64,000 nucleotides of DNA from Escherichia coli (GCF_044324875.1 NZ_CP172185.1), one strand, 5' to 3'. Shown: positions 6,653 to 27,000, counted from the stretch's first letter. A program made the numbers and translations. The notes: generated from the sequence alone by a model not told the origin.

Positions 6653-6680
6653 AGGCCCATGGGGATCGGCTGTGGGCCTG
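6653..6680. terminator. Bidirectional hairpin between convergent rhmA (+) and ypaA (-)
   Basis: aggcccatggggatcggctgtgggcct is a GC-rich inverted repeat lying between the two stop codons. Confidence 0.5.
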
Positions 6681-6686
6681 TGTTAA

Positions 6687-6872
6687 TTAGTGGTTATTCG
6701 CTGCCAGGTCGGCTTCGCTTAGCTGGGTGGCTGCGAGCACCAGGTCACGATCAATGCCCTGTTCCAGCATGCGCAAAGCAATTTTAATGGCTTGTTCATG
6801 CATGCCTTCTAATTTACCCTCCTGCCAGCCAATTTGATGTCCTTCCTGCCGTAGCCGTTCAGCAATAGTCAT
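6687..6872 (-). CDS. ypaA: Small protein duplicating the C-terminal tail module of RpnE
   Basis: 61-aa [42 protein letters not shown]..., nearly identical to the last ~76 aa of the upstream rpnE product; own SD AAGGAGAG before the ATG; DNA duplication visible (6830-6890 vs 7079-7130). Confidence 0.7.
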   Translation of the reverse strand: MTIAERLRQEGHQIGWQEGKLEGMHEQAIKIALRMLEQGIDRDLVLAATQLSEADLAANNH

Positions 6873-6884
6873 TAATCTCTCCTT

Positions 6885-7844
6885 TTAATGACCGTTCGGA
6901 ATATCAGCATCAGTGAGTTGGGTTGTCGCCAGCACAATCTTACGTTCAAAGCCCTGTTCCAGCATGCGCAAGGCAATTTTAATGGCTTGTTCATGCATAC
7001 CTTCTACTTTGCCTTTCTGCAACCCCTCCAATTTCCCCTCCTGCCAACCTTCAATTTTACCTTCCTGCCAGCCAATTTGATGTCCTTCCTGCCGCAGCCG
7101 TTCAGCAATAGTCATTAATCTCTCCTTTTGTAGTGGTGAACGTTCGGCAATCTCCTCAATAAAACGGGTGAAACGGGAGGTATCGCCGCATTGCAGCAGA
7201 TAATTAAACAGCGTTTGTAGCTGGCTGTCATTAGTGAAGCCTCTAACCAAAAGCGTGGTGATCCTGTCGACCATACCGATTAAATCGCGGTCGCGAATAT
7301 GCTTTTGAATCAGTTCAAGCAGAGCTATACGCCGATGTTGCATGATCTCATCGTCAGGTACGATGGTGATATCCACCAACGGAAAAGCTTCGGTGTACAA
7401 CTGCCGGGCAAGTTGCGGATCGTCAAACTCATCCAGCCAGTTGAGTGAGTACGGGTAGGGCGAGGTTTCGCCATGATAAAACAGCAATGGTACCACCAGC
7501 GGGACTCTGTCATAGCCTTTGTCCAGATGACGTTGCATGGCGGCAGTGGCATAGCGCATTAGCCGAAAGGCCATATTCTTTTCCGCGGAACTTTGATGTT
7601 CAATCACGCAGTAGATATACCCGTCACCGTCGCTGGTTTCCACCGACCACAAAACATCCGAGTAGTAAGCGCGTAAACTTTTTTCAATAAAGCTGGTGGG
7701 TTCCAGGCGTAAGGTTTGCAGGTTGCAAAGCTTGCGCAGCGGCTCTGGCAGATGTATTTCGAGAAAATCCCGTGCGGTTTCGGGTGTGAACATAAAGGTT
7801 TTAAACACCGCATCATGCGGGGAGGAGGTTGTTGATTCGGTCAT
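6885..7844 (-). CDS. rpnE: Rpn (YhgA-like, PD-(D/E)XK) recombination-promoting nuclease family protein
   Basis: 319-aa ORF; N-terminus and overall sequence resemble the YhgA-like/transposase_31 family (yfaD in K-12 nomenclature); C-terminus has QEGKxEG repeats and a helical tail. Confidence 0.8.
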
Positions 7845-8036
7845 GGTTGTCCGTCACCTGATATTTATGATGACGCGACATTACGGTTATCCCAGACCTT
7901 TGACATCTGCCAGTTTCAGCCTTTGCGAGACGTTTTCAGAGGAATTTTCACTGCGTTGCAACGTATACATTGAGCGCGGAATCATGCACGCAAAAATGCC
8001 CGGTAACAACATGCTTACCGGGCATCAGATGGGAGT

Positions 8037-12101
<4,065 letters not shown>

Positions 12102-12244
12102 TGTTATCCCTCTGAAGTTCGTTTTTTACCATTTAGCCATAGTAAAAACATGAATTGTTTGATTTCGCGCATATTCGCTCATAATTCGAAAGTGAAACGT
12201 GATTTCATGCGTCATTATGAACATTTAACCCATCGTATTTAATA

Positions 12245-12266
12245 ATGTGTGCGGTAATTCACATTT
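12245..12266. promoter_or_regulatory. CRP-binding site in the glpA/glpT divergent control region
   Basis: tgtgcggtaattcaca matches TGTGA-N6-TCACA; sits in the 272-bp AT-rich region between the divergent glpACB and glpTQ operons, which also holds ATGAACAT-like GlpR half-sites. Confidence 0.6.
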
Positions 12267-12373
12267 AATTTATGAATGTTTTCTTAACATCGCGGCAACT
12301 CAAGAAACGGCAGGTTCTCCCACTGAATCAGGCTGTTAATCATAAATAAGACCACGGGCCACGGAGGCTATCA

Positions 12374-13732
12374 ATGTTGAGTGTTTTTAAACCAGCGCCA
12401 CACAAAGCGCGCTTACCTGCCGCGGAGATCGATCCGACTTATCGTCGATTGCGCTGGCAAATTTTCCTGGGGATATTCTTTGGTTATGCTGCTTACTATT
12501 TGGTTCGTAAGAACTTTGCCCTCGCTATGCCTTATCTGGTTGAGCAGGGCTTCTCACGCGGTGATTTAGGTTTTGCCCTTTCGGGGATCTCAATTGCTTA
12601 TGGATTTTCGAAATTCATCATGGGCTCGGTGTCGGATCGATCGAATCCGCGCGTTTTCCTGCCCGCAGGTTTGATTCTGGCGGCGGCAGTGATGTTGTTT
12701 ATGGGCTTTGTGCCGTGGGCGACGTCGAGCATCGCGGTGATGTTTGTACTGTTGTTCCTCTGCGGTTGGTTCCAGGGGATGGGGTGGCCGCCGTGTGGTC
12801 GTACTATGGTGCACTGGTGGTCGCAGAAAGAACGTGGCGGCATTGTGTCAGTGTGGAACTGTGCACACAACGTCGGTGGTGGTATTCCGCCGCTGCTGTT
12901 CCTGCTGGGGATGGCCTGGTTCAATGACTGGCACGCGGCGCTCTATATGCCCGCTTTCTGCGCCATTCTGGTGGCACTGTTCGCCTTTGCGATGATGCGC
13001 GATACCCCGCAATCTTGTGGCCTGCCGCCGATCGAAGAGTACAAAAATGATTATCCGGACGACTATAACGAAAAAGCGGAACAGGAGCTGACTGCGAAGC
13101 AAATCTTCATGCAGTACGTGCTGCCGAACAAACTGCTGTGGTACATCGCTATCGCCAACGTGTTCGTTTATCTGCTGCGTTACGGCATCCTCGACTGGTC
13201 ACCGACTTATCTGAAAGAGGTGAAACACTTCGCGCTGGATAAATCCTCCTGGGCCTACTTCTTCTATGAGTATGCGGGCATTCCGGGCACCCTGCTGTGC
13301 GGCTGGATGTCGGATAAAGTCTTCCGTGGCAACCGTGGGGCCACCGGCGTCTTCTTTATGACACTGGTGACCATCGCGACTATCGTTTACTGGATGAACC
13401 CGGCAGGTAACCCAACCGTAGATATGATTTGTATGATTGTTATCGGCTTCCTGATCTACGGCCCTGTGATGCTGATCGGTCTGCATGCGCTGGAACTGGC
13501 ACCGAAAAAAGCGGCAGGTACGGCAGCGGGCTTTACCGGGCTGTTTGGTTACCTGGGCGGTTCGGTGGCGGCGAGCGCGATTGTTGGCTACACCGTGGAC
13601 TTCTTCGGCTGGGATGGCGGCTTTATGGTAATGATTGGCGGCAGCATTCTCGCGGTTATCTTGTTGATTGTTGTGATGATTGGCGAAAAACGTCGCCATC
13701 AGGAATTACTGCAAAAACGCAACGGAGGCTAA
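12374..13732 (+). CDS. glpT: Glycerol-3-phosphate:phosphate antiporter (MFS)
   Basis: 452-aa [34 protein letters not shown]...; 12 hydrophobic spans. Confidence 0.9.
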
Positions 13733-13736
13733 TGGC

Positions 13737-14813
13737 ATGAAATTGACGCTAAAAAACCTTAGCATGGCGATCATGATGAGTGGAATGATCATGGGAAGCA
13801 GTGCAATGGCGGCGGATAGCAACGAAAAAATAGTCATCGCCCATCGCGGTGCCAGTGGATATTTGCCGGAGCATACGCTGCCAGCAAAAGCGATGGCGTA
13901 TGCGCAGGGAGCGGATTATCTGGAACAAGATTTGGTGATGACCAAAGACGACCATCTGGTTGTCCTGCATGACCATTATCTCGATCGTGTTACTGATGTT
14001 GCCGATCGTTTCCCGGATCGGGCGCGCAAAGACGGTCGTTACTACGCGATAGATTTCACGCTCGATGAAATTAAGTCACTGAAATTTACCGAAGGTTTCG
14101 ATATTGAAAACGGTAAGAAAGTACAGACTTATCCGGGGCGTTTCCCGATGGGTAAATCTGACTTCCGGGTACACACTTTCGAAGAAGAGATTGAATTTGT
14201 TCAGGGGTTAAATCACTCTACCGGGAAAAATATCGGTATCTATCCAGAAATTAAAGCGCCGTGGTTCCATCATCAGGAAGGGAAGGATATTGCGGCAAAA
14301 ACGCTGGAAGTGCTGAAGAAATATGGTTACACCGATAAGGACGACAAAGTTTATTTGCAATGTTTTGATGCCGATGAACTGAAGCGTATTAAGAATGAGC
14401 TGGAACCTAAAATGGGCATGGACCTCAATCTGGTACAGCTGATTGCCTATACCGACTGGAATGAAACGCAGCAGAAACAGCCGGACGGAAGCTGGATTAA
14501 TTACAACTACGACTGGATGTTTAAGCCGGGAGCCATGAAACAGGTGGCGGAATATGCAGATGGTATTGGTCCGGATTACCATATGTTGATTGAGGAGACA
14601 TCGCAGCCGGGTAATATCAAACTCACTGGCATGGTGCAAGATGCTCAGCAGAACAAGCTGGCAGTGCATCCTTATACCGTGCGGTCAGATAAACTGCCTG
14701 AATACACTACTGATGTGAATCAGTTATATGATGCTCTGTATAACAAAGCGGGTGTAAATGGGCTGTTTACTGATTTCCCTGATAAGGCAGTAAAATTCCT
14801 TAATAAAGAGTAA
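13737..14813 (+). CDS. glpQ: Periplasmic glycerophosphodiester phosphodiesterase
   Basis: ORF 13680..14813; start chosen at ATG 13737 (MKLTLKNLSMAIMM...SSAMA signal peptide), 5 nt after the glpT stop with GGAGG SD; HRG catalytic motif (IAHRGASG). Confidence 0.9.
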   Translation: MKLTLKNLSMAIMMSGMIMGSSAMAADSNEKIVIAHRGASGYLPEHTLPAKAMAYAQGADYLEQDLVMTKDDHLVVLHDHYLDRVTDVADRFPDRARKDGRYYAIDFTLDEIKSLKFTEGFDIENGKKVQTYPGRFPMGKSDFRVHTFEEEIEFVQGLNHSTGKNIGIYPEIKAPWFHHQEGKDIAAKTLEVLKKYGYTDKDDKVYLQCFDADELKRIKNELEPKMGMDLNLVQLIAYTDWNETQQKQPDGSWINYNYDWMFKPGAMKQVAEYADGIGPDYHMLIEETSQPGNIKLTGMVQDAQQNKLAVHPYTVRSDKLPEYTTDVNQLYDALYNKAGVNGLFTDFPDKAVKFLNKE

Positions 14814-14822
14814 TGCTATTGC

Positions 14823-14847
14823 AGGATGGCGTTCATGCGCCATCCTC
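14823..14847 (+). terminator. Hairpin downstream of glpQ
   Basis: aggatggcg-ttcat-gcgccatcct inverted repeat immediately after the glpQ stop. Confidence 0.45.
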
Positions 14848-15033
14848 TGCTAAAGCGAAATAATGCTACTTCCGGTTGTTCTATTCATTAACCGGTGCAT
14901 CCTGTTAAAAAAGATGCCAACATATTTGCGTAAAACTCATTCGTTAAGAAAGCTAACACTGGGCATTGTTATTCCTTAAACAGTATGAATTGGGTTCAAT
15001 AATAAATTGTATTGCAGTTTATACTGTAAAGTA

Positions 15034-16140
15034 TTATTCGCATTTCGGGAAAGTAAAGAAAATATTAATGTATCTTATTAATTTATTATATTGTTCTTGA
15101 GTGAATGCTATTTGCACACCTTCAGGATAATATTCACCAGTAATAACCAGTTGTCCATTGCTGTGTTGTACCATTAAACCTTTTTTTTCCTTTGGATCTT
15201 CAAACTTAGAATTATCAAACGTGAAGATGTTATTTTCCTGTTTTGAGTAAGCAAAGAAATCTCGTGTATAGCTGAAACTATCATTTATTAATGGTGCTAA
15301 CTTTTTGTCGGCGATATCGATAAGCTCACCACTTAATTTATTGATGTATTTCATTTGGTTCAATTTTTTCTGCGCTTGTACAATTTGCTTGTAGGTATTT
15401 TTAATTTCCTTAGAAGAATTCTTGAATTTATCATAGCGTTCCACGGAGGATGCGTATTTGTACCATTCTGTATTTTTCTCAGAATGTAGTAGCAGGTCTG
15501 TATATTTTTTTTGATCGCTGTAAAGTTGACTTTTAATACTTTCCTCACTGCTGGTTTTATAAGGTTTATCAGAGCTGTTTATTTTTGAAATGTCTTTTTC
15601 TGTCGGTGACTGGACCGTGTTGTGGATATTTTCTTTTATAACATGTTCATTGATGATGTTAATTGCAGTTTCATATTCATTTAAGTTTATTGTTCTTTGT
15701 GAAATAAACCCTTCTTTGCTTTCGACACTCAAAATACCTTCGTTGTTTTCACCTCGGGTAAAGGTAAGGGTATAGGGTTCATAATCCGCTGCAAATTCAT
15801 TTTTATACGTTATGACATGTTCGACAAAATGTCTTATTGGTACGAAACCATAACTGTGAACGTCAATTTTTTGGGTCTTGATACTATCAATTGCATCTGA
15901 GGCTTTCGTGAAAAAAGCCAATAAATTAGCTATACTGTCTGCTGAAGTTGATAACCCGTATCTACTTTGAGATATTTTTAGAAACTCATCGCAAAAAAAC
16001 TCAAGTTTCGCGGTTTGTTGTGATTCTTTGTAAATTTCTGCTGGTTGCAATTTATTATTTTGTAAAATATTACAGCGAGATAAGTGAATAGATGTATTTG
16101 GAATAAATGATTCCTTGTATTGTGAGTTAACAAGATACAA
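15034..16140 (-). CDS. Hypothetical protein, 368 aa, AT-rich orphan; no recognisable domain, no signal peptide or TM segment
   Basis: Long uninterrupted ORF in a markedly AT-rich stretch (roughly 30% G+C by eye against about 50% around it); Lys/Asn/Tyr/Ile-rich codon usage unlike neighbours; no canonical SD at the first ATG, so the start is uncertain. Confidence 0.55.
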   Translation of the reverse strand: MYLVNSQYKESFIPNTSIHLSRCNILQNNKLQPAEIYKESQQTAKLEFFCDEFLKISQSRYGLSTSADSIANLLAFFTKASDAIDSIKTQKIDVHSYGFVPIRHFVEHVITYKNEFAADYEPYTLTFTRGENNEGILSVESKEGFISQRTINLNEYETAINIINEHVIKENIHNTVQSPTEKDISKINSSDKPYKTSSEESIKSQLYSDQKKYTDLLLHSEKNTEWYKYASSVERYDKFKNSSKEIKNTYKQIVQAQKKLNQMKYINKLSGELIDIADKKLAPLINDSFSYTRDFFAYSKQENNIFTFDNSKFEDPKEKKGLMVQHSNGQLVITGEYYPEGVQIAFTQEQYNKLIRYINIFFTFPKCE

Positions 16141-16569
16141 TCTAATCTTTGCAAAATATATTCACTATCAAATTTAGCTCATTTTATTACGAAGACCTTT
16201 ACGCATGGTAGAAAGTATCATTATTGTTAATAAATACGGTAATAAGTAACAAACAGATATTGATAACTTCCCTGAAAAGTTACTAGGTATCCCACTTGAA
16301 GATTGAGAATGGCTCCAGAGTAAACTGTGTACTGTTCGCCGGAGTGTCATTACTCTCAACGATCGGTTTTGACAGTGAGTCGGGCGCTTCATACCGATTT
16401 CTACCTGGAGTCATTGTCACTTCTCCCAACTGGATAAATATATATCGCCAATTCACAAAGTGGGCCAAAATCAGGTGAAAACGAATTATTACGCCTGGTA
16501 AAGGCTATAGTACAACTAAGTGTGGCGAATCAGGCAGTCTTGCATTTGTCATCAATCTCATGTCTTACA

Positions 16570-17448
16570 TCAAATTTTTCCACTCACCACGAGTTGTTCC
16601 GTACACATTTGTAGTAAAAACAGTGGACTGCCTTCTACCGGTTTTTCTTTAGCCAACAACGAAATCTGTCGATAGAAGGTTGGTTCGAGAGGAACGGAAC
16701 ACAATTCACCTGCAATGGTTTTCAGCGTTAACTCTGGTAATAAGGCGATACCTAATCCCTGTCGAATAAAACTGATCGCTGTATCCGGGTGATTAAATTC
16801 ATATTTTATCTGTGGGGTAATATTCTTTTCTTTAAATAGTGCCATAATGCTTAATTCATAGCGTCCTTTACTAATGATTAATGGTTCACCCATTAATTCT
16901 TCCACTGTAATAGTGCTGTTTTTTGCCAGAGCATGGTTGGGCGGTAACACTACGGTGAATTTATCCTGATAAATGGGCACGGAGTACATTCCGCTCACCG
17001 GAAAATGAACAAAACCGGCATCAATGGATTCATTCTGAAGGGAATCAATAATCGCTGTGCTATTTTCCTCAAAAGGAATAATTTTTATATTCGGATGATG
17101 AATTTCAAAGTAGCGAATCACAACCGGTAAGATACAGGCGCAGACGCTGGGGAAACAACCAAGTCTCAGCGTTCTTTGAGGGTTCTGCTTTTCCTGCTCG
17201 GCTATCTCTTTTACTGCGTTCACTTCCCGATTAATGGCGCGCAGATGATGCATAATGCGGTGACCTGCAGAGGTCAGTTGTATAGCTTTACGGCGATCGC
17301 GTAACAGTATATTCACGCCAAGTTCTTGTTCGAGGGCAGCAATTGCCTGACTTACCGCCGACTGCGTCATGAACAATCGTTTGCTGGCTTCAGTAAAGCC
17401 ACCGTAATCCAGCACGGCGAGTAAAGAATTTATTTGGGTAAGAGTCAT
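16570..17448 (-). CDS. LysR-family transcriptional regulator (intact yfaH-like gene)
   Basis: 292-aa ORF with N-terminal LysR HTH (FTEASKRLFMTQSAVSQAIAALEQELG) and C-terminal substrate-binding domain; divergent from an MFS gene. Confidence 0.8.
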   Translation of the reverse strand: MTLTQINSLLAVLDYGGFTEASKRLFMTQSAVSQAIAALEQELGVNILLRDRRKAIQLTSAGHRIMHHLRAINREVNAVKEIAEQEKQNPQRTLRLGCFPSVCACILPVVIRYFEIHHPNIKIIPFEENSTAIIDSLQNESIDAGFVHFPVSGMYSVPIYQDKFTVVLPPNHALAKNSTITVEELMGEPLIISKGRYELSIMALFKEKNITPQIKYEFNHPDTAISFIRQGLGIALLPELTLKTIAGELCSVPLEPTFYRQISLLAKEKPVEGSPLFLLQMCTEQLVVSGKI

Positions 17449-17469
17449 TAGAGTTTGCTAATCAATAAT

Positions 17470-17484
17470 ATTAAAACGATTAAT
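17470..17484. promoter_or_regulatory. Candidate LysR-type binding motif (T-N11-A-like dyad) in the LysR/MFS divergent region
   Basis: attaaaacgattaat = ATTAA-N5-TTAAT inverted repeat in the 151-bp divergent intergenic region. Confidence 0.35.
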
Positions 17485-17599
17485 TTCTCTAATAGCATGC
17501 CGCCATTTATACTTCTGTTCTGCAAAGTACATCACAATTTGACGCAACCGCAGTAACGGGAGTGTTGTCTGCGTGCGTCATCCTGACAGGCGGTAGGGT

Positions 17600-18790
17600 A
17601 TGAAAGAGAAGTTATGGACGAAGGATTTTTGGGCAATAACCATCATCAGCTTTATTATTTTCTTCGTCTTTTATGTTTTACTAACATTGTTGCCAATTTA
17701 TATCTCTGACCGCTTGCATGCCTCTCCTGATAAAGCAGGTTTGTTGGTGACTTTATTTTTAATTGCGGCGATTGTTATTCGCCCCTTTGCCGGGCAATGG
17801 GTGGGTAAATATTCGAATAAAACTATTCTGGTGCTCTCTTCTCTGGCCTTTTTGTTGGTCACTGCGTTGTATCCTTTTTGCCTCTCAATTGAATCACTGC
17901 TTTTTATTCGGGTGCTTCATGGTATTACCTTCGGGGTTATCACTACGGTAAAAGGAACGATTTCCGCGCGGCTGATCCCGGCCTCCCGACGTGGGGAGGG
18001 CATCAGTTTTTTCTCTTTGGCAATGGGGCTGGCAATGGTGGTCGGGCCGTGGATTGGCCTGAATATGGCGCGCTGGGAGGCCTTTAATATGGCTTTCTGG
18101 TTATGCACCGGCGTGGCAGCGGTGGGGATTATTCTGTCGCTGATTATGACAGTGCCGCCGGTTATCAGCCATGCTGATGGTTCAACGCCGAAAATGGGCT
18201 TCGCCGCCATGTTCGATCGCGCGGCGTTGCCATTTGCGATGGTCACCTTTTTTATGACCTTTTCGTATGCCGGGGTTTCTGCTTTTCTGGCGCTTTATGC
18301 ACGCGAACTTAACCTGATGTCGGCAGCCAGTAATTTCCTGCTTTGCTACGCTATCTTCCTGATGATTTGCCGTACCTTTACCGGCAATGTCTGCGACAAA
18401 AAAGGACCGAAATATGTGGTTTACCCTTGCCTTGTGTTCTTTACGGTAGGACTGGTGGTTCTCGGCTACACCCAGGGAAGCATAATGATGGTTGTTTCTG
18501 GCGCATTGATTGGTATCGGGTATGGTTCCGTGACGCCAGTTTTTCAGACGCAGATTATCAGTTCAGTGGAACCGCATAAAATCGGTGTCGCAAACTCCCT
18601 CTTCTTCAATGCGATGGATGCAGGCCTGGCGCTGGGAGCCTGTGTGATGGGGATGATGGTTGCACATACTGGCTACCGAATGATTTATCTGCTGGGTGCA
18701 CTATTAGTGGTAGTGGCTGGTGGAGTCTATGCGCTGCAAATGAAGGGTAAAAGCGGTGTCGCGCTAGTAGTGGCAAAAGAAATTCATTAA
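17600..18790 (+). CDS. MFS transporter (12-TM), substrate unknown
   Basis: 396-aa highly hydrophobic ORF with MFS-like organisation, divergently paired with the LysR regulator. Confidence 0.8.
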   Translation: MKEKLWTKDFWAITIISFIIFFVFYVLLTLLPIYISDRLHASPDKAGLLVTLFLIAAIVIRPFAGQWVGKYSNKTILVLSSLAFLLVTALYPFCLSIESLLFIRVLHGITFGVITTVKGTISARLIPASRRGEGISFFSLAMGLAMVVGPWIGLNMARWEAFNMAFWLCTGVAAVGIILSLIMTVPPVISHADGSTPKMGFAAMFDRAALPFAMVTFFMTFSYAGVSAFLALYARELNLMSAASNFLLCYAIFLMICRTFTGNVCDKKGPKYVVYPCLVFFTVGLVVLGYTQGSIMMVVSGALIGIGYGSVTPVFQTQIISSVEPHKIGVANSLFFNAMDAGLALGACVMGMMVAHTGYRMIYLLGALLVVVAGGVYALQMKGKSGVALVVAKEIH

Positions 18791-18870
18791 TACGACACGT
18801 TTCATTAAGATTTTTCGCAGGTAACCACCTATAGTCATTGTCGTAAATAAAAAATGACAGGCGATAGGGT

Positions 18871-19521
18871 ATGGCAGTTTCAGCAAAGCACGACGAATTT
18901 AATCACTGGTGGGCAACAGAGGGCGACTGGGTTGAAGAGCCTAACTATCGCCGTAATGGTATGAGCGGGGTGCAATGCGTCGAGCGCAACGGCAAAAAGC
19001 TATATGTAAAGCGCATGACGCATCATCTGTTTCATTCCGTACGTTATCCGTTCGGCCGACCAACGATTGTCCGTGAGGTTGCGGTAATTAAAGAACTGGA
19101 ACGGGCTGGTGTCATCGTGCCGAAGATTGTTTTTGGTGAAGCGGTGAAAATTGAGGGGGAATGGCGCGCGTTGCTGGTGACTGAAGATATGGCGGGGTTC
19201 ATCAGCATTGCTGACTGGTATGCCCGGCATGCAGTAACGCCCTATTCTGACGAAGTACGGCAAGCCATGTTGAAAGCAGTGGCGCTGGCGTTTAAGAAAA
19301 TGCATAGCGTTAATCGTCAGCATGGCTGTTGCTATGTTCGCCATATCTATGTGAAAACAGAAGGTAAGGCAGAAGCTGGATTTCTTGATCTGGAGAAAAG
19401 TCGTCGCCGCTTGCGTCGCGATAAAGCGATTAATCATGACTTCCGCCAGCTGGAAAAATATCTGGAGCCGATCCCCAAAGCGGACTGGGAGCAGGTGAAA
19501 GCGTATTACTACGCCATGTAA
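18871..19521 (+). CDS. inaA: InaA, Kdo/lipopolysaccharide-kinase-like protein
   Basis: 216-aa ORF MAVSAKHDEFNHWWATEGDWVEE...; matches InaA as I recall it. Confidence 0.8.
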   Translation: MAVSAKHDEFNHWWATEGDWVEEPNYRRNGMSGVQCVERNGKKLYVKRMTHHLFHSVRYPFGRPTIVREVAVIKELERAGVIVPKIVFGEAVKIEGEWRALLVTEDMAGFISIADWYARHAVTPYSDEVRQAMLKAVALAFKKMHSVNRQHGCCYVRHIYVKTEGKAEAGFLDLEKSRRRLRRDKAINHDFRQLEKYLEPIPKADWEQVKAYYYAM

Positions 19522-19524
19522 TCG

Positions 19525-19565
19525 TTGTAGGCCAGATAATACGCGTAAGCGTCGTATCTGGCGCT
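19525..19565. repeat. REP-like palindromic element between convergent inaA and yfaE
   Basis: aggccagataatacgcgtaagcgtcgtatctggcg, an imperfect palindrome of REP type. Confidence 0.4.
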
Positions 19566-19574
19566 AGTACCCGA

Positions 19575-19829
19575 TCACAACTCGATTTCAATATCGCCTT
19601 TTGCCCGGCAACAACAAGGCAAAATTTCCCCCGGCTGAATAAAGGCTAACGGTTCGGCAATCCAGTCCACCTGGCCTGCAACAAGGCGCGTGCGACAGGA
19701 ACCGCAGTAACCTTCGCGGCACTGGTACTCAACCGCCACATTGTGGGATTCCAGCGCCGCCAGAAGGGAAGGGTGTTCATCCTGGCACAGCAGTTGTGTG
19801 CCAGTGATGCGCAGGGTAATGCGAGCCAT
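19575..19829 (-). CDS. yfaE: 2Fe-2S ferredoxin YfaE (NrdB cofactor maintenance)
   Basis: 84-aa ORF with CxxxxCxxC...C ferredoxin cysteines (CREGYCGSC...CCC); start overlaps the nrdB stop by 1 nt. Confidence 0.85.
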   Translation of the reverse strand: MARITLRITGTQLLCQDEHPSLLAALESHNVAVEYQCREGYCGSCRTRLVAGQVDWIAEPLAFIQPGEILPCCCRAKGDIEIEL

Positions 19830-20959
19830 CAGAGCTGGAAGTTACTCAAATCGTCGGTGTCCACTTCCGAGTCAATCTGCCCGACCAGATAAGAACTGAC
19901 TTCCACTTCCTGCGGAGCAACCTGCACGTTATCAGACACCAGCCAGGTATTGATCCACGGGATCGGGTTGGAGCGAGTCTGGAACGGCAGATCCAAACCG
20001 ACTGCCTGCATGCGGATATTGGTGATGTATTCAACGTACTGGCAGAGAATGTCTTTATTCAGACCAATCATCGAACCGTCACGGAACAGATAATCCGCCC
20101 AGTCTTTCTCTTGCTGTGCCGCCTGGACAAACAGGTCATAGCATTCCTGCTTACATTCTTCGGCAATTTCCGCCATCTCCGGATCATCCGCGCCGCTGCG
20201 CAGCAGATTCAGCATATGCTGAGTACCGGTCAGGTGCAGGGCTTCATCGCGGGCAATCAGGCGAATAATTTTGGCGTTACCTTCCATCAGTTCGCGTTCT
20301 GCAAAGGCAAAGGAACAAGCAAAGCTGACGTAGAAGCGGATCGCTTCCAGCGCGTTAACGCTCATCAGGCAGAGATACAGTTTTTTCTTCAGCTCGCGCA
20401 GGCTAACGGTTACGGTTTTACCGTTAACGGTGTGGGTACCTTCGCCCAGCAGATGCCAGTAGCTGGTCATTTCGATCAGCTCATCGTAATAGCTGGAGAT
20501 CCCTTCCGCACGTTTCTGGATCTGCTCGTTGGTGACGATATCATCAAACACAACGGACGGATCGTTAACGATATTACGAATGATATGGGTATAAGAACGA
20601 GAGTGAATGGTTTCTGAGAACGCCCAGGTTTCGACCCAGGTTTCCAGTTCAGGGATCGAGATCAGCGGCAGCAGTGCCACGTTCGGGCTGCGACCCTGAA
20701 TGGAGTCCAGCAACGTCTGATATTTCAGGTTGCTGATAAAGATGTGTTTTTCGTGTTCAGGCAGTGCCTGGTAATCGATACGGTCACGAGAAACGTCAAC
20801 TTCTTCCGGACGCCAGAAGAAAGAGAGCTGCTTTTCGATCAGCTTTTCGAAGATGTCATATTTTTGCTGATCGTAGCGAGCCACGTTGACCGGCTGACCA
20901 AAGAACATCGGTTCTTTGAGCTGATCATTTTTCGTCTGTGAAAAGGTGGTATATGCCAT
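19829..20959 (-). CDS. nrdB: Class Ia ribonucleotide reductase beta subunit
   Basis: ORF 19829..21040; start chosen at ATG 20959 ([17 protein letters not shown]); the 5' extension of the ORF lies inside a REP cluster and is rejected. Confidence 0.95.
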
Positions 20960-24085: not shown

Positions 24086-27000
24086 ATGCGGATTATTTTT
24101 CTACGCAAGGAGTATTTATCTTTACTCCCGTCAATGATTGCATCTCTTTTCTCTGCTAACGGTGTCGCGGCGGTCATTGATTCATGTCAGGGATATGATA
24201 TCAAAGCGAGTTGTCACGCCAGCAGGCAAAGCCTTTCAGGCATTACGCAGGACTGGAGCATCGCCGATGGGCAATGGCTGGTTTTTTCGGATATGACCAA
24301 TAACGCCAGCGGTGGGGCCGTATTTTTGCAACAAGGAGCGGAGTTTTCTCTATCGCCAGAAAATGAAACTGGAATGACTCTGTTTTCCAATAATACTGTC
24401 TCAGGAGAATATAATAACGGCGGGGCAATATTTGCTAAAGAAAACTCAACGCTGAATCTTACTAATGTTATTTTTTCCGATAACGTTGCAGGTGGCTATG
24501 GTGGCGCAATCTATTCTTCTGGTACTAACGATACCGGTGTCGTCGATTTAAGTGTCACTAACGCCGTGTTTCGCAATAACATCGCTAATGACGGCAAAGG
24601 TGGTGGAATTTATACCATCAACAATGACGTCTATTTAAGTAAAGTTATTTTTGATAACAACCAGGCATATACATCAACAAGTTACAGTGATGGCGATGGG
24701 GGTGCAATCGATGTCACCGATAATAATAGCGATATCACGCATCCGTCAGGTTTCACAATAATAAATAACACCGCATTTACAAATAACACTGCCGAAGGTT
24801 ATGGTGGGGCAATTTATACCAATAGCGTGTCGGCTCCCTATCTTATTGATATTTCGATTGATGACAGCTACAGCCAGAACGGCGGCGTGTTAATCGATGA
24901 GAACAATAGCGCGGCAGGTTATGGGGATGGTCCTTCCACTGCGGCGGGCGGCTTTATGTATCTCGGCTTAAGTGAAGTTACCTTTGATATTGCCGACGGA
25001 AAAACGCTGGTTATCGGCAATACAGAGAATGACGGAGCTGTTGACTCTATTGCTGGTACCGGGGTAATCACCAAAACAGGTTCCGGCGATCTGGTACTTA
25101 ATGCAGATAACAATGACTTTACTGGTGAGATGCAGATAGAAAACGGTGAAGTTACCCTGGGCCGCAGCAACTCCCTGATGAATGTCGGCGATACGCATTG
25201 CCAGGACGATCCGCAAGACTGCTATGGTCTGACGATAGGGAGTATTGATCAGTATCAGAATCAGGCTGAGCTAAACGTTGGCTCGACCCAACAAACTTTT
25301 GTGCACGCATTGACGGGCTTTCAGAATGGCACTTTAAATATCGATGCTGGTGGCAACGTTACTGTTAATCAGGGCAGTTTTGCTGGCACCATCGAAGGTG
25401 CTGGTCAGCTCACCATTGCGCAAAACGGCAGCTACGTGCTGGCAGGGGCTCAGTCGATGGCGCTAACTGGCGATATAGTCGTTGATGATGGCGCGGTGCT
25501 TACGCTGGAAGGCGACGCGGCAGATCTTGCCGCTCTCCAGGACGATCCGCAGTCGATCGTGTTAAACGGCGGTGTGCTTGATCTCTCTGATTTCGCCACC
25601 TGGCAGAGCGGCACATCATACAACGATGGCCTTGCAGTCAGCGGCAGCGGCGGTACGGTTATCGGCAGTCAGGATGTGGTGGATCTCGCAGGGGGCGACA
25701 ATTTGCATATCGGCGGCGACGGGAAAGATGGCGTCTACGTGGTGATCGATGCGGGCGACGGGCTGGTTAGCCTGGCAAACAATAATAGTTACCTGGGCAC
25801 CACGCAAATCGCTTCCGGTACGCTGGTGGTGAGCGACAACTCGCAGCTTGGAGATACCCATTGCAACCGCCAGGTTATCTTTACCGATAATCAACAAGAA
25901 AGCGTGATGGAGATTACTGCCAATGTCGATACTCGCTCTACAACGACTGAGCATGGGCGTGATATTGAAATGCGCGCCGACGGTGAAGTGGCAGTTGATG
26001 CGGGGGTAGACACGCAGTGGGGCGGACTGATGGCTGACAGCAGCGGGCAGCATCAGGATGAGGGTAGCACATTGACTAAAACGGGGGCGGGTACGCTGGA
26101 ACTGACCGCCAGCGGTACGACGCAGTCGGCGGTACGTGTCGAAGAAGGCACCCTGAAAGGCGATGTTGCGGATATCTTCCCTTATGCTTCGTCGCTGTGG
26201 GTCGGTGACGGGGCAACATTCAAGACTGGCGCGGATCAGGATATTCAGTCAATTGATGCTACTTCCAGCGGCACTATCGACATCAGCGATGGTACGGTTT
26301 TGCGCCTGACCGGGCAGGATACTTCCGTCGCCCTTAATGCCTCACTGTTTAACGGCGATGGGACGCTGGTGAATGCCACCGATGGTGTGACGTTGACAGG
26401 TGAGCTTAATACCAACCTTGAAACTGACAGCCTGACTTATCTTTCCAACGTGACGGTTAATGGCAATCTGACCAATACGTCCGGTGCGGTTAGCCTGCAA
26501 AATGGCGTCGCTGGCGATACGCTGACGGTAAACGGTGATTATACCGGCGGCGGTACGCTACTGCTCGATAGCGAATTAAACGGCGATGACTCGGCAAGTG
26601 ACCAACTGGTGTTGAACGGTAATACTGCTGGCAACACGACCGTGGTAATTAATCCCATTACGGGTATTGGTGAGCCGACATCTACAGGCATTAAAGTGGT
26701 TGATTTCGCAGCTGATCCCACGCAGTTTCAAAACAATGCGCAGTTCAGTCTGGCAGGTAGTGGCTACGTCAATATGGGAGCGTATGACTACACGCTGGTG
26801 GAAGATAACAACGACTGGTATCTGCGATCGCAAGAAGTAACGCCGCCATCGCCACCTGATCCCGACCCGACTCCCGATCCTGATCCCACACCGGATCCCG
26901 ATCCAACACCCGACCCAGACCCTACGCCTGCTTACCAGCCGGTGCTGAATGCCAAAGTTGGTGGATATTTTAATAACCTGCGGGCGGCAAATCAGGCGTT

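Follow-up and report, generated by a model that had tools for sequence, protein, structure and literature searches.

Why does the 3′ end of rpnE carry an in-frame tandem repeat, and what would a change in its length mean for the protein? The question arises in the rhmA(yfaU)-ypaA-rpnE-glpC region of Escherichia coli, which is carried by the stretch of DNA analyzed here (hereafter the window, 64 kb in full). A preliminary description, made from the sequence alone, had presented the repeat as a candidate site of length variation that could tune the spacing between a nuclease and its tail. Having compared the locus among E. coli genomes and with the published work on Rpn proteins, we consider, with a probability of roughly 85%, that the tract is the known variable four-amino-acid repeat of the Rpn family and that its detection was an independent rediscovery of a published feature.

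The rpn genes have been described as genes-within-genes, in which an internally translated short protein (RpnS) blocks the toxic full-length protein (RpnL) (Zhong et al., PNAS 2023, PMC10400941), and a commentary agrees with this account (PMC10400984). Strain-variable repeats of four amino acids, termed 'dodecamer' repeats, set the pairing of toxin and antitoxin; their onset lies 8-20 residues past the initiating Met of RpnS, in the long first helix that forms the dimer interface of RpnA-S (PMC10400941). For RpnC, the addition of one repeat to either RpnC-S or RpnC-L ended inhibition unless both carried it (PMC10400941). Functional assays in that study covered RpnA, RpnB, RpnC and one plasmid Rpn, RpnE not being among them: the blocking of RpnL by RpnS was shown for RpnA and RpnB, the same-number rule was tested for RpnC alone, and phage protection was reported for the plasmid RpnP2 alone (PMC10400941). 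Strain MG1655 makes both RpnE-S, whose translation in K-12 was followed by ribosome profiling and tagging, and YpaA, the gene of which was renamed rpnE-Ss (PMC10400941). This downstream S copy derives from rpnE and can disappear, either by being deleted or by fusing with the N-terminal region of rpn; variation in the repeats was recorded for every Rpn paralogue, including paralogues that have no downstream S copy, and also in distant phyla (PMC10400941).

The gene in the window takes the name rpnE from the RefSeq label of the syntenic gene between glpC and yfaU. Among the NCBIfam models, its product matched NF007418 with 707.7 bits (cutoff 583) and the Rpn family model TIGR01784 with 172.7 bits (cutoff 52.1), and the Pfam search placed PF04754 (Transposase_31/YhgA-like) on its nuclease domain with an E value of 6.2e-88. 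Positions 1-256 of the RpnA model align with residues 1-256 of RpnE at zero offset. Accordingly numbered equivalents of D11, D63, E82, Q84 and R94 and of the PDDE motif (D165), the importance of which in RpnA was reported by Kingston et al. 2017 (PMC5350276), are all kept in RpnE. The coordinates of the locus are collected in Table 1.

Table 1. Features of the rpnE-ypaA locus, in window positions
Feature	Position	Strand	Remarks
rpnE, encoding RpnE-L	6885..7844	-	319-aa ORF; stop codon 6885-6887
PD-(D/E)XK nuclease / Transposase_31 domain	7218..7823	-	RpnE residues 8-209
Internal Shine-Dalgarno AAGGAG	7122..7127	-	6 nt 5′ of the internal ATG; sequence reading
RpnE-S, internal in-frame ORF; putative intragenic antitoxin / HTH_Rpn_C domain	6885..7115	-	Met244 to stop, 76 aa
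ypaA (= rpnE-Ss)	6687..6872	-	61 aa; stand-alone second RpnE-S copy
ypaA Shine-Dalgarno AAGGAG	6879..6884	-	adjoins the rpnE stop codon; sequence reading
Tandem duplication	6709..7129	.	rpnE 3′ end 6904-7129 repeated as ypaA 6709-6886
Core repeat array	6999..7070	-	six 12-nt / 4-aa units, RpnE residues 259-282; five beyond K-12
Extended tract	6987..7094	-	RpnE residues 251-286; degenerate flanks RQEG HQIG ... MHEQ
ypaA repeat array WQEG KLEG	6804..6827	-	one extra unit

The 3′ end of rpnE is a putative gene within the gene, and it is present twice. The string AAGGAG-N6-ATG at Met244 of rpnE (ATG at 7115-7113) recurs at the start of ypaA, and with this Shine-Dalgarno sequence, 6-nt spacer and start codon the duplicated block begins. 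The last ~230 nt of rpnE are related to ypaA through two repeat families with 80% (D2) and 91% (D3) identity, at register offsets of 195 and 243 nt; the gap of 48 nt between the two registers equals the four-unit difference between the arrays. At the protein level, the product of ypaA aligns with positions 244-308 of NF007418, the RpnE model. A simple scan for promoters detected no sigma-70 consensus within rpnE, which does not contradict the internal transcription start sites that have been published. PADLOC (PADLOC-DB 2023, which is without an Rpn model) returned a single irrelevant weak match for the locus.

The annotation of ypaA varies among databases. It is a pseudogene in the RefSeq record of K-12 (1117-1302 of the K-12 locus, L003), and in most genomes PGAP labels it 'hypothetical protein, incomplete, missing N-terminus' and merges it with a 12-nt spacer; the newest RefSeq records alone name it 'Rpn/YhgA-type helix-turn-helix domain-containing protein'. 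The gene has its own Shine-Dalgarno sequence and ATG, is intact across all two-gene loci seen, and its translation has been reported (PMC10400941). Between ypaA (-) and the convergent rhmA (+), a GC-rich hairpin with a weak T-tail (6653-6679) is a possible shared terminator.

The repeat itself has a different period in DNA and in protein. Tandem Repeats Finder described the core array as 3.0 copies of a 24-nt period, with 70% matches, no indels and a score of 67. Outside the core, the degenerate units RQEG and HQIG precede the array and MHEQ follows it; the MHE(Q) unit reads ATGCATGAA and is similar to the unit TTGCAGGAA. At a lag of 24 nt, the tract matches itself at 0.63, whereas the average across the window is 0.27 (sd 0.05); none of the 10,649 other 108-nt segments in the 64 kb attains the value of the tract. 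The tract is the strongest 24-nt periodicity of the window, and it is not due to chance. At a lag of 12 nt, the self-match of the array is just 0.40. In DNA, the 24-nt period prevails because two types of 12-nt unit alternate, of which one, TGGCAGGAAGGT, encodes [W/L]Q[E/K/Q]G and the other, AAATTAGAAGGT, encodes K[L/I/V]EG; both terminate in GAAGGT, which recurs each 12 nt. Translation of the two ORFs reproduced exactly the repeat peptides that had been quoted for RpnE and YpaA, and the site proposed for them, 6960-7100, brackets the extended tract. The window holds a second tandem repeat at 26853-26913 (Tandem Repeats Finder: period 18, 3.4 copies, score 73; also period 24), coding for a (PDPDPT)n-like run of Pro, Asp and Thr that is probably a linker of a large surface or autotransporter protein.

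The length of the tract differs among strains, always in the same step. In K-12 MG1655, rpnE (b2244) comprises 900 nt and encodes 299 aa; its tail, ...HQIGWQEG/MHEQ..., has five units fewer than the window RpnE, so that the difference given in the preliminary description as about 20 aa is exactly that (319 vs 299). Megablast located the rpnE locus in 5,420 of the 5,426 complete E. coli genomes, its spans differing by multiples of 12 nt. Among the loci that we fetched (27 distinct ones from complete genomes and 31 from other assemblies), rpnE carries 0, 1, 2, 3, 4, 5, 6 or 8 extra units (299 to 331 aa) and ypaA carries 0, 1, 2, 4 or 5 (57 to 77 aa). A protein search with the RpnE-S of the window found 244 Escherichia/Shigella relatives, 120 protein clusters of them listed; every parsable array among these 120 and in 57 fetched loci has a length of 7+4n residues, with n = 0-6 and 8. 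The in-frame length variation that had been suspected at the tract is thereby borne out, in steps of four amino acids throughout; we found neither one repeat number common to all strains nor a K-12 RpnE of equal length, either of which had been named as speaking against it. Since unit counts of 1, 3 and 5 occur, the arrays change by 12 nt (4 aa) at a time rather than by 24 nt. The ~24-bp unit of the preliminary description therefore holds as a super-period of the DNA but not as the unit of change.

Polymorphism in 12-nt steps is limited to the two arrays. In an alignment of 44 sequences, all indels lie within the array, and the S-domain sequence on either side of it hardly varies; in DNA, the non-array sequence has a constant length of 774+162+108 nt in 27 of 28 two-gene loci. 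The rpnE frame is intact in the 27 distinct loci from complete genomes, an IS2 case excepted. In the latter, from strain UTME-10 (L017, NZ_CP157104.1, 1-1832), IS2 lies within the 3′ part of rpnE, and the S domain and ypaA are gone. In Escherichia marmotae / Escherichia sp., the 75-aa ypaA-like proteins P0064, P0073, P0076 and P0083 have in common a different, apparently frameshifted tail, ...QGIDRDLAARSHPAKRSRSGSE, which replaces the third helix.

To describe how common these alleles are, we used a systematic rank-spread sample of 60 rows of the 5,420 complete genomes, in which ambiguous rows were resolved by sequence. Allele-specific BLAST counts over all 5,420 genomes were rejected: the flanks of rpnE and ypaA are near-identical, and gapped and split alignments were inseparable by identity bands. 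In the sample, rpnE is at n=0 in 33 rows, n=1 in 2, n=2 in 4, n=3 in 1, n=5 in 9, n=6 in 3 and n=8 in 7. The modal state is thus that of K-12 (n=0, about 56%), and the n=5 state of the window makes up about 15%. Both rpnE and ypaA are present in 34 rows, with n=0 (14), n=1 (2), n=3 (1), n=5 (8), n=6 (2) and n=8 (7). In another 25 (about 42%), a single fused gene joins the N-terminus of rpnE to a ypaA-type tail, with n=0 (19), n=2 (4), n=5 (1) and n=6 (1); one row with a partial locus was left unscored. Overall, fusion alleles were seen with n = 0, 2, 5, 6 and 8. No complete E. coli genome is identical to the window across the spans tested. The best identity is 99.0% over the 12-kb glp-side flank (7900-20000), 98.1% over the rpnE-ypaA locus and 99.5% over the 428 nt at the rpnE 3′ end (6873-7300), for which 117 genomes have at least 99% identity to the window. 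With the arrays excluded, the window and the nearest sampled locus differ at 19 of 1,044 positions, and the rpnE-ypaA locus is therefore somewhat more diverged than its flank.

It had been suggested that the number of units might go with the presence of ypaA. Arrays with at least five extra units occur in 17 of the 34 loci that retain ypaA and in 2 of the 25 fused loci (Fisher p = 0.0007), a raw association that stands as a count but is not a valid test, because the sampled genomes are clonally related and relatedness was left uncorrected. Within two-gene loci, the numbers of units in rpnE and ypaA are unequal in 13 of 14 haplotype classes: (0,1), (0,5), (1,4), (2,4), (2,5), (3,1), (4,0), (5,0), (5,1), (5,2), (6,4), (6,5) and (8,4), given as (rpnE,ypaA), the window being 5 vs 1. 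The sole equal class is (4,4), in L042-L048, by which a rule that the two are never equal, true of the first nine haplotypes, was broken. Some haplotypes of (0,5) and similar classes are from metagenome assemblies, in which chimeric joins across the duplication are possible. Many short-read contigs, from metagenomes and drafts (L032-L037, L024-L027), stop 36-400 nt upstream of ypaA, within the duplicated RpnS-coding segment. Apparently, the duplication and the repeats break assemblies, and haplotypes from such contigs need care.

We then consider where the array lies in the protein. It starts at residue 16 of RpnE-S (residue 8 if the degenerate units are included), 15 residues past Met244. A profile of RpnE-S and YpaA matched 7TH0_A in the PDB, 'Recombination-promoting nuclease RpnA' (the 49-aa RpnA-S), with an E value of 3.3e-6; profile positions 1-13 fall on residues 1-13 of 7TH0_A and positions 39-71 on residues 15-47. 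The repeat block occupies the gap in this alignment and is therefore an insertion within helix 1. Foldseek gave 7th0 as the best PDB match with a probability of 0.99, yet with an E value of 0.22. The AF2 model of the window RpnE-S (76 aa, with alignment; mean pLDDT 72) has a single helix from residue 3 to 53 that runs through the repeats, where the pLDDT is low at about 57-62; the model of K-12 RpnE-S (56 aa, single sequence) has three short helices at a low pLDDT of 66. These predictions weakly suggest that the repeats extend helix 1. Homologues of RpnE-S and YpaA carry the precomputed assignment PF27070, HTH_Rpn_C; the Pfam search of the window proteins reported no C-terminal family on RpnE or YpaA, and phmmer with full-length RpnE against the PDB gave a chance match alone, 7TH0 emerging with the S-domain profile. 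Judged by profile similarity, the C-terminal domain of RpnE is homologous to RpnS, the three-helix HTH_Rpn_C domain. The array is part of this small C-terminal domain and not a linker.

Overall, the anatomy of the locus, its homology to RpnA-S and the 12-nt polymorphism of the two arrays are observations, around which a putative mechanism can be drawn. The rpnE gene would give RpnE-L, a PD-(D/E)XK nuclease-family protein, and, from Met244, RpnE-S, which would be identical to the C-terminal domain of RpnE-L; ypaA would provide a third, tandemly duplicated and stand-alone copy of this domain. The repeats would occupy the long first helix, their glycines spaced four residues apart, and the gain or loss of one unit would correspond to about one helical turn; the five units by which the window exceeds K-12 would amount to about 30 Å, provided that the tract is helical. 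Going by RpnA and RpnC, helix 1 would be the interface at which RpnS binds and silences RpnL, and an equal number of units would be needed for the two to pair. The unit number would then serve as the key to toxin-antitoxin specificity, and it would undergo rapid diversification in the species. Reasoning from RpnC, we lean towards the view that matching numbers also govern RpnE itself, in which RpnE-L would have the putative role of the toxin. The number of units probably changes by two non-exclusive routes. In one, the 12-nt units that end in GAAGGT misalign; in the other, the rpnE 3′ end and ypaA undergo unequal recombination or gene conversion with each other, which would also yield the fused alleles.

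Other readings of the tract have to be weighed against this one. According to the preliminary description, the tract is a spacer of variable length that sets the nuclease domain at the N-terminus apart from a separate tail at the C-terminus. The tract does lie between the nuclease domain and the extreme C-terminus, and its length shifts by up to 32 residues. However, the array sits inside an S domain with a start codon of its own, 15 residues upstream of it; it is predicted, with low confidence by AF2, to be helical and continuous with the flanking helix; it corresponds to a gap in helix 1 of the RpnA-S crystal structure 7TH0; and the ypaA copy, which has no nuclease, varies likewise. We therefore regard a spacer as very improbable. 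A neutral explanation fares somewhat better but is still unlikely: the tract would be a low-complexity region of a decayed gene, made unstable by 12-nt microhomology, and its copy number would be without consequence. Such decay would fit the loss of a separate ypaA, through fusion or deletion, in about 42% of the sampled genomes, the IS2 insertion in one, and the shortest state, n=0, being the commonest. It would also fit the inactivity of K-12 RpnE in all assays of Kingston et al., in which its overexpression, unlike that of RpnA-D, gave no recombination, toxicity or SOS phenotype (2017, PMC5350276); the database annotation of the K-12 protein is 'inactive'. The constructs of that study held the whole gene and hence RpnE-S too, from which we infer that the negative result for K-12 RpnE is not decisive. 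Against decay, the frame of rpnE is intact in 27 loci, the IS2 case aside, the equivalents of the catalytic residues are kept, indels beyond the arrays are absent, and the flanks of the S domain are nearly invariant. Moreover, repeat variation extends to every Rpn paralogue and to distant phyla, and an effect of it has been shown experimentally in RpnC (PMC10400941).

A further alternative concerns the source of the variation and is compatible with the known Rpn repeat as the best explanation. Slipped-strand mispairing, as first proposed, is plausible because the 6-nt GAAGGT recurs every 12 nt; unit number might instead change mainly because the rpnE 3′ end and ypaA recombine or convert each other. 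Exchange with the ypaA copy clearly contributes. The exact array of the window occurs on rpnE-type tails (3 clusters) as well as on ypaA-type tails (8 clusters), the rpnE array of L006 is nearly equal in DNA to the ypaA array of L008, and fusion alleles combine rpnE-type arrays with ypaA tails, as in L012, which has the 8-unit rpnE array of L008. The ~60 nt of near-identical sequence on either side of both arrays would favor such events. However, the repeats also vary in Rpn paralogues that lack a downstream S copy (PMC10400941), odd-unit hybrids such as KLEG-LHEQ in K-12 YpaA resemble out-of-register, local 12-nt deletions, and the stretch of non-array sequence that separates the two arrays does not vary in length. 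That recombination is the main route is thus possible, though we find it doubtful.

If the same-number rule applies, the inequality of rpnE and ypaA in 13 of 14 classes implies that YpaA usually would not neutralize the resident RpnE-L. We speculate that ypaA may be a mismatched donor cassette rather than a spare antitoxin, and that the pair may form a two-cassette system for re-keying toxin-antitoxin specificity, which may be likened loosely to antigenic variation from silent cassettes. The unequal numbers, the exchange of arrays and tails, and the longer arrays where ypaA is kept (17/34 vs 2/25, uncorrected for phylogeny) led us to this idea, to which we nevertheless assign a low probability.

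Comparison with known systems leads back to the published Rpn repeat. The dodecamer repeats of RpnS and RpnL, known from RpnA-S, RpnC-S and all E. coli RpnS including YpaA (PMC10400941, 7TH0), belong to the same family and the same gene. They have the same position in helix 1, 8-20 residues past the internal Met, and the same 4-aa/12-nt unit of one hydrophobic residue with charged residues or glycine; copy number likewise varies within the species, and the downstream S copy is likewise fused or lost. We see no essential difference; the window represents one allele (rpnE 5, ypaA 1). The TAEL repeats of HsdS in the type I restriction systems EcoR124I/EcoR124II are likewise in-frame, helical and four amino acids long, and their copy number (2 vs 3) alters the geometry of a nuclease complex used in defence and, through it, the specificity of the complex (PMC10400941). 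In HsdS, however, the repeats space two DNA-recognition domains and determine a DNA target, whereas in Rpn they are proposed to determine the pairing of proteins, and the two families are unrelated. Contingency loci also have an intragenic tandem repeat whose copy number changes frequently within a species, probably by strand misalignment, but they switch expression on and off; the changes in rpnE keep the frame and alter the length of the protein. All variants seen were multiples of 12 nt with an open ORF, and the switch of frame or of promoter spacing that defines a phase-variable contingency locus was not seen among them. FliH and YscL have variable-length GxxxG/AxxxG helical repeats in a long helix implicated in dimerization, and in FliH the repeats vary between species and not among strains of one species. 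With RpnE they share a glycine at each fourth residue of a long helix and a repeat number that varies among homologues. Residues ~205-287 of RpnE (window ~6984-7232) gave sub-threshold NCBIfam matches to four FliH models (E 1e-7 to 4e-4); these fall well short of the family cutoffs and point to repeat composition and a structural analogy rather than to homology.

For work on E. coli genomes, the differences in rpnE length among strains are to be taken as genuine alleles and not as assembly errors, and ypaA should not be handled as a pseudogene fragment; assemblies from short reads and metagenomes tend to break at this duplicated, repeat-bearing segment. The tract raises no question beyond those of Zhong et al., namely how and why the repeats change and what the downstream copy does. 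It is an instance of the principle that they published, in which a 12-nt in-frame repeat in a gene within a gene sets the fit between antitoxin and toxin, and such repeats diversify quickly within species, presumably under pressure from phages.
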